From a virus, in the UHGV virus genome UHGV-0246164: a stretch of 35,288 bases of DNA; one strand, 5' to 3'. Positions 3,785-32,924 of this stretch are shown here, piece by piece. Position numbers and translations under genes: made by a program. The notes beneath the pieces are model-generated. The model made no database searches. It was given only the letters and a program-made list of their open reading frames with translations, and was not told the DNA's origin. Position 1 is the first letter of the stretch, and every line of letters starts with the position of its first letter.

Positions 3785-4851
3785 CTTATACCTGCCATTT
3801 TTTTAAGCGTGTCCTGACTAACCATGTCACGAGCACCACGCGCAAAACACATCAAATCCATGTACCACGCCTGACCTCTGGTGTCGCCAGTATAGTCGAT
3901 AGCTTTGACGATATAAACGCCATCTGTCGCAATGCTGGCAGCCTGTGACGTTGTGCCGGTCAGTACGCGGTTGCCGTTCTCTTCCGTTTCAGTGATACGC
4001 CCGGGCGACTGTGCGATTTCGCTATTGCCGAGCGCGGCGCGGTACACCGAAGCCTGATCGAGCTGGATAAGACCATTAATGCGGATGTTTGGGTTTATCA
4101 GGCACCGCACGTTTACGCCGCCGCCCATTGTCTGTTGCGGCATACCGATCAGGCCAGTATTGGCATTCAACACAATGGCTTCGTGAATATATTTATCCTC
4201 CGGCACCATCTGGACCTGACCATCCACCAGTTGCCATGTCGCTTTGCACTGCGCAGCAATATTATCCATCACGTTGCGGCTGGATGAGTAAATCGCGCGG
4301 CCACGAGGAAACACGGTATCAGGAAAATCGCCGGTAATGCCCTGTGTCACGCCGAACGCGTTGAAATCCTGCATCGTCGCCCGGTGCAGATCCGCAACGG
4401 TATAGCCAGCGGCAAGCGTGGTGATGGTGGTCGCATAGAGGAACGCTTCGTGATCACCAATGGCCTGAATCAACACCCAGGAATCCGTAATGTTGTCCTT
4501 CCCGGTGACGGTGAAGCGAATATCACCGTCAAAAATCAGGCCGTAGTTCTGACCGTTCACCTGCCCTATCTGGTCTGGTGAAATCTCCCGGGACACACCA
4601 ACCTGGCTCGCATCAACATCCGGCGCTATACCGTCATACCCGGCAATGATGCGAATTTTGGCAAACTCCTGCCCAAGTATCTTGTTCGTGGTATCGGTCG
4701 AAAGGTTGTAAATTTTCACGTTCGCCACGCGCGGCCAGCTTGTGTCTGCCCACTCGATCTGGAACGTGACCTTAAAATCAGACAGGGAAACGCCCTGCCC
4801 GTTCTGGTCCAACAGTTGCAGCTCAAAATGGCGCATCCAGTTAAGAGACAT
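3763..4851 (-). CDS. Baseplate hub protein (P2 gpD / Mu gp44-like)
   Basis: 362 aa ORF downstream of the tape measure and two small tail genes. Assignment by synteny in a myovirus-type tail module. Confidence 0.5.
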   Translation of the reverse strand: MSLNWMRHFELQLLDQNGQGVSLSDFKVTFQIEWADTSWPRVANVKIYNLSTDTTNKILGQEFAKIRIIAGYDGIAPDVDASQVGVSREISPDQIGQVNGQNYGLIFDGDIRFTVTGKDNITDSWVLIQAIGDHEAFLYATTITTLAAGYTVADLHRATMQDFNAFGVTQGITGDFPDTVFPRGRAIYSSSRNVMDNIAAQCKATWQLVDGQVQMVPEDKYIHEAIVLNANTGLIGMPQQTMGGGVNVRCLINPNIRINGLIQLDQASVYRAALGNSEIAQSPGRITETEENGNRVLTGTTSQAASIATDGVYIVKAIDYTGDTRGQAWYMDLMCFARGARDMVSQDTLKKMAGIRWVRPNF

Positions 4852-28778: not shown

Positions 28779-29465
28779 ATGGATAAATACGAACAAAGAC
28801 GACTAAGGCTGATAGAGATAAGAGACCGATTCTGTAATGGAAAGGCCTCAGAGTTGGCTCGTCGAATAGAAAGGGAACCATCATACGTTTCCAGAATGCT
28901 GTATCCGGAAGGAAAAAGCGGAAAAAAACGCATTGCTGACGATATGATGGAACTAATTGAAAAATCTTTTAATCTCCCACGCGGATGGATGGACATGCTT
29001 GCAGATAGCAAAGTTGGATCTGCAGACCATCTTGAGTTTGCGGGTAACGTTCGTGCGGGTTTTGTTCCGGTAATTGGTGAAGCCGTTTTGGGAGTTGATG
29101 GCTCAGTGGATATGATTGAATTCAGATCCGGTTGGTTAAGCATCTACAGTGGCGATAAAGATGCTTACGGTCTGAAGGTTAAGGGTGACAGCATGTGGCC
29201 AAGGATTCAGTCAGGAGAATATGTTGTTATTGAACCAAATACGCCAGTACATCCAGGTGATGAAGTCTTTGTAAGGACCAAAGATGGTCATAACATGATA
29301 AAGATCATGAACAAAACAAGAGACGGAGACTATCAGTTTAGTAGTATAAACAGCGATCACCGTCCAATCACTCTTCCTGTTGAAGAAGTTGATAAAATGC
29401 ATTTTGTTTCAGCTATTGTGAAACACACTAGGTACGTAGACCAGGACGATCTGCCAAAATTTTGA
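28779..29465 (+). CDS. cI: CI-type prophage repressor (HTH plus S24 LexA-like autopeptidase domain)
   Basis: 228 aa with a candidate Ala-Gly cleavage site (NVRAGF), catalytic Ser in GDSMWP and a downstream Lys (RTKDG). Divergent from cro. Not lambda cI. Confidence 0.8.
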   Translation: MDKYEQRRLRLIEIRDRFCNGKASELARRIEREPSYVSRMLYPEGKSGKKRIADDMMELIEKSFNLPRGWMDMLADSKVGSADHLEFAGNVRAGFVPVIGEAVLGVDGSVDMIEFRSGWLSIYSGDKDAYGLKVKGDSMWPRIQSGEYVVIEPNTPVHPGDEVFVRTKDGHNMIKIMNKTRDGDYQFSSINSDHRPITLPVEEVDKMHFVSAIVKHTRYVDQDDLPKF

Positions 29466-29479
29466 GGATAAAGCAGCAA

Positions 29480-29776
29480 ATGTTTATACCAGGTATAGTG
29501 GTCGCTGTTGTAATCATCTGCTTCATATGGGCAAAGTTATCTCCTGTAAGCTCTAAGCATACAGCTGAACTCATGAAGAAGAAGCATCTTATACATGAGG
29601 CAGAAACGATAATTAAGAAGTTCAAAGGCATGTCATATGACGACATGTCATCAGATCAGATTGCTATGTATAAATGCGCCATTGAGCGTCTTGACTACTT
29701 AAACGGACTCAAACCCAAACACACCCCGGTAGAATCAAAATTGCCGCAATGGCCAAGCAATCCAAATAGCTTCTGA
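29480..29776 (+). CDS. Single-pass membrane protein co-transcribed with cI (rexAB position)
   Basis: ATG 29480 with GAGGA 11 nt upstream (an in-frame TTG at 29462 overlaps the cI stop). N-terminal hydrophobic segment FIPGIVVAVVIICFIWA, then an 80 aa charged domain. Terminator follows. Confidence 0.55.
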   Translation: MFIPGIVVAVVIICFIWAKLSPVSSKHTAELMKKKHLIHEAETIIKKFKGMSYDDMSSDQIAMYKCAIERLDYLNGLKPKHTPVESKLPQWPSNPNSF

Positions 29777-29787
29777 CATCTCCTTTC

Positions 29788-29810
29788 AGCCCGCAAAGCG
29801 GGCTTTTTTA
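29788..29810 (+). terminator. Intrinsic terminator ending the cI operon
   Basis: AGCCCGC-AAA-GCGGGCT followed by TTTTTTAT, 12 nt after the membrane protein stop. Confidence 0.75.
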
Positions 29811-29830
29811 TATCAATCCAAAAAATTAAT

Positions 29831-29914
29831 TACCTGAAAATTCAAACAGGTAAACTCTCACACCAATTTTATTTACCTGCAGGTATAGACAACAGTTTTA
29901 CCTGTAGGTATATT
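29831..29914 (+). promoter_or_regulatory. OL operators and candidate pL promoter
   Basis: TACCTG-n10-CAGGTA (29831-29852), TACCTGCAGGTA (29874-29885), TACCTGTAGGTA (29899-29910). Candidate -35 TAGACA (29886-29891), 17 nt, -10 TATATT (29909-29914). Confidence 0.55.
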
Positions 29915-29954
29915 TTAAGCCATCAGCAGGACGCACTAACCACCATGAAGGTGA

Positions 29955-29985
29955 GGCTCTTAAAAATTAAGCCCTGAAGAAGGGC
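29955..29985 (+). promoter_or_regulatory. nutL (boxA + boxB)
   Basis: GGCTCTTAAAAATTAA followed by GCCCTGAAGAAGGGC, matching lambda nutL (from memory). Confidence 0.8.
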
Positions 29986-30253
29986 AGCATTCAAAGCAGA
30001 AGGCTTTGGGGTGTGGTGAAGCCAGCTAGTCACTGGCAAGTGCTTACCTACTGTTGAGCGGTGAAGCGCTCCCAACGCTAGCAATAGCGTGGACGAGATG
30101 GGGAGCCGCGGGCGATAAGGCCGCCATAACGCGCACGTTGTCGCATGGAAAAATCGCTGGGGTGCCGGTTATACCCCTCCGAATGAGACTCAACAAGCTG
30201 GAGCTAGACTACCAGCCACCACACCACCAAAGCTAACTGACAGGAGAATCCAG

Positions 30254-30586
30254 ATGGATGCACAAACACGCCGCCGCGAACGTCGCGCAGAGAAACAGGC
30301 TCAATGGAAAGCAGCAAATCCCCTGTTGGTTGGGGTAAGCGCAAAACCAGTTAACCGCCCTATTCTCTCGCTGAATCGCAAACCGAAATCACGAGTAGAA
30401 AGCGCACTGAATCCAATAGACCTTACAGTGCTGGCTGAATACCACGAACAGATTGAAAGCAACCTGCAACGTATTGAGCGCAAGAATCAGCGCACATGGT
30501 ACAGCAAGCCACGCAGTGAAATGGGGGTGACTTGTGTTGGTCGCCAGAAAATGAAATTAGGCAGTAAGCTACTGTATGAGGGGTGA
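30254..30586 (+). CDS. N: Antiterminator N (lambda-type)
   Basis: MDAQTRRRERRAEKQAQWKAANPLLVGVSAKPVNRPILSLNRKPKSRVESALNPIDLTVLAEYH..., near-identical to lambda N as I recall it, including the Arg-rich boxB-binding motif. AGGAG Shine-Dalgarno. Confidence 0.9.
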   Translation: MDAQTRRRERRAEKQAQWKAANPLLVGVSAKPVNRPILSLNRKPKSRVESALNPIDLTVLAEYHEQIESNLQRIERKNQRTWYSKPRSEMGVTCVGRQKMKLGSKLLYEG

Positions 30587-30589
30587 GAT

Positions 30590-30778
30590 ATGCATAAATG
30601 TCAGTTCTGTGGATACATGTTTGAATCAAATGAAATGCAACGTATTTCGTTAAACCTTATCGGTAGGCCATACAACATTTGCCTAGGATGTAGCGAGAAA
30701 TACAAAAACAAAGACATGTGGGACGACAATAAAAACGATATCGACTGGAATAAAGTGCCATGTATTGATGATAGTTAA
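30590..30778 (+). CDS. Small zinc-ribbon-like protein (CxxC...CxxC) in the ral position
   Basis: 62 aa with C4/C7 and C31/C34 pairs. AT-rich. Begins 4 nt after the N stop. Confidence 0.45.
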   Translation: MHKCQFCGYMFESNEMQRISLNLIGRPYNICLGCSEKYKNKDMWDDNKNDIDWNKVPCIDDS

Positions 30779-30826
30779 AAATAATTATGCCGCATAGTCG
30801 GCCTTCTTTTGGCATAAACAACAGAG

Positions 30827-31111
30827 GTGGATATGAAAGAGTTTAAGGGTACGCCTGGTAAATGGAAGTACACGGTTAGAAACGTCAACGAGATGATGAC
30901 TACGTTCCATGGTGTGACGATTGGTGACACATACATTGAAGCAGCAACAAGAAATGAAAGGGAGGATGCGCTACTGATAGCAGCAGCTCCTTATTTGCTT
31001 GAAGCACTGCAAGAGCTTGTCTTCCTTTACGAGCATGACGAAGGGTGCAGAGAGTTAACCGAATACAAACGAGCCAAGGCAGCCATCAGCAAGGCCCTGG
31101 GGGAAGAATGA
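30827..31111 (+). CDS. Hypothetical protein
   Basis: 94 aa ORF. Its TGA stop overlaps the start of the next ORF (ATGATGA). Confidence 0.45.
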   Translation: MDMKEFKGTPGKWKYTVRNVNEMMTTFHGVTIGDTYIEAATRNEREDALLIAAAPYLLEALQELVFLYEHDEGCRELTEYKRAKAAISKALGEE

Positions 31112-31269
31112 TGAATAAGAAATACATTGTTGAAGTTATAGAGCGAGAAACGAAAGAAGTAATTAAACATTTCGAATTTGATAATTATAGAAAAGCTGAC
31201 CGCGTAGAAGAGGGATTGTTGCGACAAAGTAATCTCGAAAAATTTGATGTTGTCATGCGATGCGAATAA
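31108..31269 (+). CDS. Hypothetical small protein
   Basis: Preferred start MMNKKYIVEV at 31108 (the track ORF begins at 31045). GGGGA upstream. Translationally coupled to the preceding gene. Confidence 0.4.
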   Translation: MMNKKYIVEVIERETKEVIKHFEFDNYRKADRVEEGLLRQSNLEKFDVVMRCE

Positions 31270-31362
31270 GCACCTATAGCAGATTTGCGAGTCTGCTATG
31301 TGAGCAATGTCGCTCGTAACTAAACAGGAGCCGACTTGTTCTGATTATTGGAAATCTTCTTT

Positions 31363-31388
31363 GCCCTCCAATGTGAGGGCCTTTTTAT
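31363..31388 (+). terminator. Intrinsic terminator within the early-left operon
   Basis: GCCCTC-CAATGT-GAGGGC followed by CTTTTTATAT. Confidence 0.55.
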
Positions 31389-31452
31389 ATGCATACCAAT
31401 AACGCTTCACTCGAGGCGTTTTCGTTATGCAATCAAACAGAAGGAGCATCCT

Positions 31453-31623
31453 ATGCAACAGTTCGCTATTGCAGGGGCGGCATCGGTTCGCCCTTTCAAC
31501 CCGATTTTATCGGTACAGCATTCACGAAAAAATATTTTAACCGGAGCAGACTTTAAACAACCAAGAATGAAAAGTTTGCTCGAAAAGCTTTGGGATATTT
31601 TGAAACAACAAGGCCGTCCATGA
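31453..31623 (+). CDS. CIII-like small protein (candidate FtsH inhibitor)
   Basis: Preferred start ATG 31453 with AAGGAG 6 nt upstream. MQQFAIAG...LLEKLWDILKQQGRP parallels lambda CIII (MQYAIAGW...LIDILNQPG, from memory). Confidence 0.5.
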   Translation: MQQFAIAGAASVRPFNPILSVQHSRKNILTGADFKQPRMKSLLEKLWDILKQQGRP

Positions 31624-31704
31624 GTTTTACAGATAACTGGTCAGACGAAGAATTCATTCGTCAGATGAACAAAATGCTCAATCAGCACAAAGAACAGGAG
31701 AAAG

Positions 31705-32016
31705 ATGATGATTCTGACTCTGAATGATAAGCGTGAAATATCGCAAATAATCGCAAGTTTTACTGATGAAGATTACGAACGAATCAACAGTGAAGTTGAT
31801 CGCCTCTGCAAACGTTGCGACCCAATAAGCGAAATGCTTCGCTCATATAAACCAGATGAACACACTAAGGACGCTATCGACTGGCTGGAAGATGATGACT
31901 GTAACTATCAGGAAAAAGCCGCTGAATGGTTCTGGGATGCAATAACCGAAAGAGTTAAGGCTGAATATGCTTTCGCAATATTCAAACGCAGACACATTTA
32001 TGGAGAAGCAGCATGA
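31705..32016 (+). CDS. Hypothetical acidic protein upstream of recT
   Basis: 103 aa, AGGAG 5 nt upstream. 4-nt overlap with the recT start. Confidence 0.5.
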   Translation: MMILTLNDKREISQIIASFTDEDYERINSEVDRLCKRCDPISEMLRSYKPDEHTKDAIDWLEDDDCNYQEKAAEWFWDAITERVKAEYAFAIFKRRHIYGEAA

Positions 32017-32924
32017 GCAATATCGTTGAATTCGTTAAACAGCAAGAGCAGTTATTCTGCGGAGCATTGACTGAACAGACGGTGACATGGGCTAAGGAAA
32101 GCCAGTTTGCAATTCAGTATTTCCAGAAAAACGATTACCTGGCTAAAACAGCACTGGCAAATCCAACAAGCGCACAGAACGCCATCATCAATGTTGCGGC
32201 GATCGGCATCACCTTAAACCCGGCTAGCAAACTGGCTTATCTGGTTCCGCGCGACGGCATGGTATGCCTTGATATCAGTTACATGGGATTGCTCCATATT
32301 GCAATGGAGTCTGGTGTTATCTCATGGGGTCAGGCAAAACTTGTTCATGCTAACGATACCTATGAGTCAAACGGGCTTGATAAAGCACCAACCCATAAAT
32401 ACAAAGCCTTCGGTGACCGTGGTGATATCGTTGGCGTTTACTGCACAGTTAAGACGCCAGCAGGTGATTATCTAACGGAAGAGATGAGTCTGGCTGAAAT
32501 TGAGGCTGTAAGGAAAACAAGCAAGGCAGCATTCAGCGATAAAGGACCATGGGTAAATCACTGGAATGAGATGGCGCGAAAGACGGTCGTAAAGCGTGCA
32601 AGCAAGTATTGGCCTAAGGCATCACGTCTTGATAGTGCTATTCACGTACTAAACGAAGAAGAAGGTGTATGGACTGAACCAGTTATGCCGCACAAATCAG
32701 AGGAAGATATCCGCGAAGATGAACGGAAACGCCAGCAGGAAATAACGGATAAAGCACAACTTCTTTGTGATGAAATGGCTCAGGCTGAAAACATGGATGA
32801 TTTGAAGAGATATTTTGCAGAAGCATATCGCCTGACATCTGGAATGAAATTGCAGCAGAACGTACAAGCCATTTACATAGAATGCAAAGCGAAACTGGAG
32901 GTTGCCAGTGAGCAAACTGTATGA
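32013..32924 (+). CDS. recT: RecT-family single-strand annealing recombinase
   Basis: 303 aa. GPWVNHWNEMARKTVVKRASKYWP matches the RecT motif (Rac RecT GPWVTHWEEMAKKTAIRRLFKYLP, from memory). Confidence 0.8.
   Translation: MSNIVEFVKQQEQLFCGALTEQTVTWAKESQFAIQYFQKNDYLAKTALANPTSAQNAIINVAAIGITLNPASKLAYLVPRDGMVCLDISYMGLLHIAMESGVISWGQAKLVHANDTYESNGLDKAPTHKYKAFGDRGDIVGVYCTVKTPAGDYLTEEMSLAEIEAVRKTSKAAFSDKGPWVNHWNEMARKTVVKRASKYWPKASRLDSAIHVLNEEEGVWTEPVMPHKSEEDIREDERKRQQEITDKAQLLCDEMAQAENMDDLKRYFAEAYRLTSGMKLQQNVQAIYIECKAKLEVASEQTV

Follow-up and report, generated by a model that had tools for sequence, protein, structure and literature searches.

Three small genes between N and tL2a as exchangeable two-module cargo in the PL operon of UHGV-0246164

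The virus genome UHGV-0246164 (35,288 nt, the full length of which is called the window here) contains, on its + strand, a lambdoid early-left operon in which a 680-bp block at positions 30590–31269 follows the antiterminator gene N and holds three small open reading frames, ORF1, ORF2, and ORF3. Comparison with other phages firmly supports the view that this block belongs to the exchangeable cargo carried in a known variable region of the PL operon, i.e. the region between N and the bsq4/tL2a boundary, and alignment divides the block at conserved junctions into two independently mobile modules; module A is ORF1 and module B is ORF2 together with ORF3. All three are genuine protein-coding genes. 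The reading that we favour, and that we hold to be fairly probable rather than secure, is that this two-module PL cargo encodes what are likely small binders active in host takeover, counter-defence, or competition between phages.

A variable interval between N and tL2a

Over positions 30200–31369, the window is 99.4% identical to phage mEp213, in which the three genes are mEp213_050, mEp213_049, and mEp213_048, each entered in GenBank as a hypothetical protein. For most of the other listed lambdoid and P22-like phages, the match is limited to N and to a right boundary of ~100 bp; this right flank (~31301–31388) has a core that is invariant across lambda, Sf6, mEp213, mEp043, and Dewey. What lies in between differs from phage to phage: sieB and ral in lambda; genes 36, 35 (ral), and 34 in Sf6; sieB/esc, ral, orf78, and orf87 in P22; and, in ST104, cargo that includes ORF18, of the orf78 family. 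In other words, gene content varies while the flanks, N to the left and the bsq4/tL2a boundary to the right, are conserved. A first-pass annotation, made from the letters of the window, had put the block in the position of ral, and this placement stands, the interval being the one that holds sieB/ral in lambda, ral in Sf6, and ral-orf78-orf87 in P22. It had also credited the lambda interval with Ral, SieB, and Kil; ral and sieB do lie there, but Kil lies beyond the boundary, after cIII. The likeness to the lambda Ral/SieB interval extends to the orientation of the genes, their dependence on PL, the terminator to the right, and the kind of cargo, which consists of small non-essential genes that vary between otherwise similar phages. 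A stretch containing ral has been described as a phage 'accessory region' (Silas et al., bioRxiv 10.1101/2023.04.06.535777), and the absence of our three genes from most relatives suggests that they are dispensable for phage growth.

A second conserved junction lies inside the block, between ORF1 and ORF2 (30787–30825), and takes the form of GCCGcatagtCGGCC, a T-run, and GGCATAAACAACAGA. In lambda, the same element comes directly after ral and then leads straight into the boundary hairpin; in Sf6, it comes after gene 34. Because the junction joins the boundary hairpin directly in lambda, ORF2–ORF3 can be read as an insertion between two junction elements, with ORF1 alone occupying the slot from N to the junction. 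The modules are also found apart. Among 5,426 complete E. coli genomes, ORF1 is present in six, this allele of ORF2 in 12, and ORF3 in 90, and all three occur together in none. Louie and ECONIH4 carry ORF1 after N and lack ORF2 and ORF3; Dewey and ES3 carry an ORF2 that is 97–99% identical to ours, followed by an unrelated ORF of 67–70 residues; and prophages of Cronobacter and Atlantibacter carry ORF3 after unrelated upstream ORFs, each of which has ...A(L/I)GEE/A at its end and either abuts the start of ORF3 or overlaps it.

Layout, expression, and coding status

The features of the region are as follows.

29886–29914, + strand: PL-like promoter TAGACA-17-TATATT, the sole strong sigma-70-like match upstream of the block (promoter scan)
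29971–29985, + strand: nutL boxB hairpin GCCCTGAAGAAGGGC (read from the sequence)
30254–30586, + strand: lambda-type antiterminator N, 110 residues, isoelectric point (pI) 10.5 (Pfam N36, E = 1.7e-26; phrog_271)
30590–30778, + strand: ORF1, 62 residues, predicted acidic C4 zinc-ribbon protein, phrog_19863, module A (open reading frame, conserved cysteines, AlphaFold2 model)
30787–30825, + strand: conserved junction element, hairpin GCCGcatagtCGGC plus T-run (degenerate here), then GGCATAAACAACAGA (alignment; weak fold)
30833–31111, + strand: ORF2, 92 residues, PF27050 Phage_P22_Y8K6 / P22 orf78 family, phrog_1273 (homologues, alignment)
31108–31269, + strand: ORF3, 53 residues (52 from the second ATG), phrog_6949, ATGA overlap with ORF2 (homologues)
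31274–31301, + strand: hairpin directly 3' of ORF3 (fold and alignment)
31301–31388, + strand: right boundary sequence (bsq4 in Sf6), ending in a tL2a-like intrinsic terminator (alignment, terminator scan, Sf6 annotation)

In mEp043, the position equivalent to our promoter is annotated PL. The hairpin at 29971–29985, which we take to be lambda boxB, was also picked up in an antisense terminator scan, and the tL2a-like terminator consists of a stem at 31363–31380 and a T-run. The promoter scan found no sigma-70-like promoter inside the block, so the block depends on PL, and an Rfam search of 29400–32200 returned no RNA family above threshold. The first-pass description of the three as uncharacterised early accessory genes is supported.

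Only 3 nt separate the N stop (30586) from the ATG of ORF1 (30590), which is preceded by the Shine-Dalgarno sequence GAGGGGTGA; as first annotated, a 62-residue CxxC...CxxC protein starts 4 nt after N. The ORF2 stop (31109–31111) overlaps the ORF3 ATG (31108) as ATGA within the motif ATGATGA, and the coupling and the length of ORF3 given in the first-pass annotation are correct, while its 94 residues for ORF2 become 92. GC content is 0.354 for ORF1, 0.473 for ORF2, and 0.327 for ORF3, against 0.502 both for N and for the whole window; a block richer in AT than N, as had been judged by eye, is thus right for ORF1 and ORF3 and marginal for ORF2.

Are these ORFs under selection as proteins? Ratios of nonsynonymous to synonymous differences (pN/pS) were obtained for ORF1 and ORF3 against relatives with 68–87% identical proteins (HK225, two metagenomic prophages, and the Cronobacter and Atlantibacter prophages), and they fall at 0.11–0.25 overall (~0.16–0.25 for ORF1 and 0.11–0.19 for ORF3), with pS saturated at 0.77–0.92 versus a pN of 0.08–0.21. 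ORF1 and ORF3 are under purifying selection. We find scarcely credible the reading in which the ORFs are artefacts of annotation, or filler without function, in an AT-rich spacer. The proteins are very short, their families have no known function, and the Prokaryotic Genome Annotation Pipeline (PGAP) leaves ORF1 unannotated in all five listed E. coli genomes (e.g. L019 2501–2689), although its DNA is 99.5–100% conserved in the six complete E. coli genomes that carry it; however, the low pN/pS at synonymous saturation, the conserved cysteines and motifs, the Shine-Dalgarno sequences and coupled starts, and the confident AlphaFold2 model of ORF1 largely refute such a reading. Conservation in relatives, the touchstone proposed in the first-pass annotation, is found, though the distribution is patchy.

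Searches with single sequences and with family profiles gave no significant match for any of the ORFs in Pfam, NCBIfam, PADLOC, or PDB sequences; PADLOC returned no family for any of the three at E <= 1, and the PHROGs matches were to families of unknown function only. Pfam and PHROGs matched none of the three to a Ral, SieB, or Kil family, nor did NCBIfam match them to SieB or Kil, and that none is related to these proteins is firmly supported at the level of sequence. The three proteins are small and acidic, with no obvious hydrophobic membrane segment.

ORF2, a family whose halves reassort

The 94-residue version of ORF2 starts at a GTG (30827) that falls within the Shine-Dalgarno sequence GAGGTGG, and all homologues, as well as the mEp213 GenBank entry, start MKEFKGTPG, i.e. 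at ATG 30833; ORF2 is therefore better read as 92 residues. By alignment, it is a member of the P22 orf78/PF27050 family. Although hmmscan of ORF2 itself gave no Pfam match, the Pfam set used was one without the PF27050 model, and a precomputed PF27050.1 match is present in all of the best 120 of its 328 database homologues, including one (P0001) that is 98% identical. The family is named Phage_P22_Y8K6, and one member bears the PGAP label 'XkdD/Y8K6 family phage-associated protein', XkdD being a Bacillus PBSX protein. ORF2 and P22 orf78 are 37% identical, with W11, L48, A51, P53, L55-56, A58-L59, A83-84, and K87-G90 invariant, and share the motifs (F)KGTxGxW, LIAAAPxLLEAL, and ARAAIxKALGxE; alignment with P22 orf78 and ST104 ORF18 confirms the relationship. 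The P22 and ST104 genes sit between ral and gene 17, so that orf78 occupies the same position, between ral and gene 17/cIII, and in P22, as here, a small downstream ORF (orf87) abuts. Unlike these shared features, the N-terminal module and the tip of the protein both differ from those of orf78. Membership in PF27050 explains nothing mechanistically.

ORF2 can be divided into an N-terminal β module, a central motif LIAAAPxLLEALQ, a variable helical-hairpin tip (residues 61–82), and a constant tail AAISKALGEE. In the structure model, the β hairpin at the N-terminus is of low confidence and the helical hairpin over residues 42–88 is confidently predicted. The matches of the model in BFVD are to uncharacterised phage proteins only (E >= 0.064), and fold searches, as suggested in the first-pass annotation, were uninformative for ORF2. 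Within the best 120 matches, a single N-terminal type is found with 20 or more unrelated segments, of 16–36 residues each, between LIAAAPDLLEALQ and AAISKALGEE. Conversely, the LLLKQ... tip is also found on a different N-terminal module, in mEp043 and APC_JM3.2, and the DNA breakpoints lie at codons 59–60 of ORF2. The halves of ORF2, as these comparisons indicate, reassort at the conserved central motif, i.e. by intragenic module reassortment. A diversity-generating retroelement was considered as the source of tip variation and rejected, as the variants are of unequal length and consist of non-homologous blocks, with sharp breakpoints in the DNA, rather than of adenine-specific substitutions. 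A supposed link of the LIAAAPELLEAL motif to Ead/Ea22 proteins found no support in the single Ead/Ea22-like fragment that was translated.

ORF3 and a published screen of accessory genes

The ORF3 family comprises 13 database clusters, and its homologues are always found in the same N-to-boundary interval; among nine members, 26 positions are invariant. A toxin–antitoxin pairing of ORF2 with ORF3 was rejected, since the pair has no promoter of its own and since 97–99% identical ORF2 proteins, and ORF3, each occur with unrelated partners. One 145-residue protein from a Logan contig (P0003) is an in-frame ORF2–ORF3 fusion (...KALGGRMMNKKYIVEV...), probably owing to a frameshift or to misassembly at the ATGATGA overlap. 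At the joint itself, CTGGGGGAAGAATGA (window 31097–31111) encodes the KALGEE-stop tail of PF27050 proteins and also gives a purine-rich ribosome-binding stretch and an overlapping start for the next small gene. The unrelated ORFs found upstream of ORF3 share a terminal AxGEE motif, and the KALGEE tail may be under a double constraint, as part of the protein and as a joint for coupling and recombination.

Relatives of both module B proteins have already been through a functional screen. ORF3 is identical at 52/52 residues to ATN92755.1 of phage APC_JM3.2, which is UDP0149 (orf149) in Supplementary File 3 of Silas et al. (bioRxiv 10.1101/2023.04.06.535777); QBZ71465.1 of Salmonella phage Akira, listed in the same file as UDP0110 (orf110), is a member of the ORF2 family with ~40% identity to ORF2. 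That screen covered 200 accessory genes for counter-defence and cell-death phenotypes, using E. coli reference strains and T-phages, P1, and lambda (bioRxiv 10.1101/2023.04.06.535777). ORF1 was not found in the 200-gene library.

ORF1, a predicted zinc ribbon that travels with antiterminators

ORF1 (pI 5.1) has two CxxC knuckles, C4/C7 and C31/C34, and every full-length homologue keeps all four cysteines along with the block MQRISLN..GRPY.IC..C. AlphaFold2 models it, with a predicted local distance difference test score (pLDDT) of 85.5, as a ββα arrangement (two β strands and a helix) on the zinc knuckles, and ORF1 is accordingly described here as a predicted ββα C4 zinc ribbon, with zinc binding likewise predicted. 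The family is tiny, with eight clusters among 5.8 billion proteins; a profile search gave 10 matches among 1.84 billion representative proteins, several of which are repetitive zinc-finger proteins and likely spurious. Foldseek found no significant PDB structure match to the model, only generic zinc folds, the best being the Cap5 HNH domain at E = 0.077, with RING/FYVE fingers and ribosomal zinc ribbons among the other top matches.

What kind of zinc protein might ORF1 be? It resembles small zinc-ribbon, treble-clef, and ββα-Me (HNH) zinc folds, phage zinc fingers such as lambda Orf73/TraR included, in its CxxC...CxxC pattern and predicted β-β-α core. An HNH (ββα-Me) nuclease was rejected: the catalytic His and Asn are absent, the sole His is residue 2, and there is no Pfam HNH match. 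Nor does Pfam match ORF1 to zf-dskA_traR or Ogr/Delta. Homology to lambda Ral was also rejected (hhalign with the family profile gave a probability of 0.2%); homology to Sf6 gp36 and to the Cronobacter zinc-ribbon ORF upstream of ORF3 was rejected on comparison.

The position of the family is always near the PL promoter. In the window, mEp213, Louie, and ECONIH4, a lambda-type N is followed 4 nt on by the start of ORF1; in a further genome (L012), the homologue starts 4 nt after an N of the PF25694 family; in a metagenomic prophage (L014), it lies directly upstream of a PF26859-type N; and in HK225, ORF1 is the second gene of the PL operon, beside a 70-residue protein that matches no N family. 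From these positions, we infer that ORF1 would be made immediately early, together with N. Two observations on these relatives may be added. In L012 (4190–4215), a strong intrinsic-terminator-like hairpin, GGTCGCCcaGGCGGCC plus TTTTTTATT, comes right after the N-plus-ORF1 pair and delimits an immediate-early unit of two genes; in the window, the counterpart of this hairpin is degenerate. In L014, a 17-bp direct repeat, CCGCATCAGCGGGTAAC, flanks the ORF1 homologue (4095–4111 and 4316–4332) and looks like the footprint of a module insertion.

A functional tie of ORF1 to antitermination is possible. For example, ORF1, made in stoichiometric amounts with the very basic N, might stabilise N (against Lon, say), tune N, or guard it against Nun-type exclusion, roles that would accord with the presence of ORF1 homologues beside three unrelated antiterminator families (lambda-type N, PF25694, and PF26859) and with the charge contrast between ORF1 (pI 5.1) and N (pI 10.5). 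We nevertheless think such a role unlikely. Most phages with a lambda-type N do without ORF1, which is carried by 6/331 matching phage records (three phages) and by the six E. coli genomes noted above, and this rarity means that N does not need ORF1; in HK225, moreover, ORF1 adjoins the protein without an N family match, and a simple need for promoter proximity would also explain the adjacency of N and ORF1.

What might the cargo do?

In the reading that we favour, module A would be translated in coupling with N, upstream of the first terminator-like junction, and so made with N right after infection or induction, and module B, with its ATGA-coupled ORF3, would be read by N-modified polymerase from its place between the junction element and the boundary hairpin. 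None of the three proteins has an enzymatic signature, and for this reason they are most likely small stoichiometric binders of host or rival-phage proteins, which would serve to take over the host, to counter its defences, or to compete with other phages; in ORF2, the most likely specificity surface would then be the variable tip. The first-pass annotation had put the three forward as candidate anti-defence or host-takeover genes. The homology searches (Ral, SieB, Kil, and PADLOC) and the screen, in which orf149 and orf110 go unnamed, lend this proposal no support, and an anti-defence role is plausible but unsupported.

Several points weigh against our reading. Neither orf149 nor orf110 is named among the counter-defence or conditional-lethal genes in the main text and phenotype lists of the preprint, which is a weak piece of negative evidence and holds only for the hosts and phages used in that screen. 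We found no functional study in the literature on mEp213, XkdD, PF27050, orf78, or the motif peptides. The junction hairpin after ORF1 is weak in the window (4-bp stem, z = -1.5), so that a split of the genes into immediate-early and delayed-early classes is tentative. The pattern of one N-terminus with many tips is partly a matter of ascertainment, as the matches were ranked against a query whose N-terminal module makes up 60 of 92 residues. Finally, PF27050 is found in temperate as well as virulent phages with hosts as varied as Klebsiella, Salmonella, Proteus, Vibrio, Xanthomonas, Pseudomonas, and Rhizobium, and includes many virulent siphoviruses of Klebsiella, Salmonella, and other hosts; a general phage function fits this breadth better than a narrow anti-defence role does.

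The alternative that we take most seriously, even though we rate it well below our own reading, is that the three proteins modulate host physiology or the lysis–lysogeny decision, in the manner of Kil or of the exo–xis genes Ea8.5, Orf63, and Orf73/TraR. These are small early PL proteins without enzymatic motifs, and lambda offers precedents for early regulators that bind zinc. Ea8.5 has a zinc finger. Orf73/TraR is reported to be a zinc-binding early lambda regulator (PMC9239242). That no anti-defence phenotype is named for orf149 or orf110 would agree with a physiological role, as would the wide host range of PF27050. However, the conditional-lethal screen likewise names neither gene, none of the three proteins shows homology to Ea8.5, Orf63, Orf73/TraR, or Kil or a match to zf-dskA_traR or any other Pfam family, and their patchy, cassette-like distribution is more typical of arms-race cargo.

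The genes might instead protect the lysogen, by superinfection exclusion or abortive infection, as SieB and Rex do. The interval carries sieB in lambda and P22, but all three genes are co-oriented with PL, have no internal promoter, and would be repressed in a lysogen; together with the lack of a PADLOC match and of an obvious membrane segment in these small, acidic proteins, this makes lysogen protection very improbable in our judgement.

Neighbouring features

The boundary hairpin (31274–31301), just before the invariant bsq4, comes in two versions whose stems are wholly different in sequence: CTATAGCAGA...TCTGCTATG in the window, mEp213, and mEp043, and GTGTATTCA...TGAATACAC in lambda, Sf6, and Dewey. 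Both retain the ...CGAG part of the loop, and structure here appears to be conserved without sequence. Some 470 bp downstream of the cassette, mEp213 has a second antiterminator gene, of the HK620 type (L001 4540–4812), that is absent from the window; the window runs instead into a RecT/Gp157-type recombination module resembling the one in the ECONIH5 prophage. As a whole, the window is a different mosaic from any phage in the collection, the best coverage being 48%.

To the left of PL, a 104-residue ORF (29462–29776; 98 residues from an internal start) belongs to phrog_10450, of unknown function, and has a hydrophobic N-terminal stretch, IPGIVVAVVIICFIW. It directly follows the cI-like repressor, where lambda has rexAB, and a strong terminator-like hairpin (29788–29804) comes after it. 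This ORF is a candidate lysogen-expressed membrane protein.

Outlook

The sequences, families, and hotspot described here are all already known, and the block is no new kind of system. What it brings out is that, even in the textbook PL operon, the hotspot next to N still holds many genes without a function, in a slot where the anti-restriction protein Ral is among the cargo, as are triggers of abortive-infection systems. With the module boundaries mapped, concrete constructs can be designed, and the cultured phages mEp213, Louie, and Dewey carry different combinations of the genes.

Two points are of main interest: the reassortment of halves within PF27050, a widespread family, and the fact that ORF1 is persistently found beside unrelated antiterminators. 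Taken further, ORF2 could be a modular binder, a conserved scaffold whose helical-hairpin tips are swapped through recombination at the invariant LIAAAPxLLEALQ and AAISKALGEE anchors and track diversifying host-defence or rival-phage targets, and ORF1 could be an immediate-early zinc-ribbon factor that travels with unrelated antiterminator families. This bolder proposal is doubtful as it stands. Were either part of it true, it would add a new class of early phage effector to a very well-studied operon.

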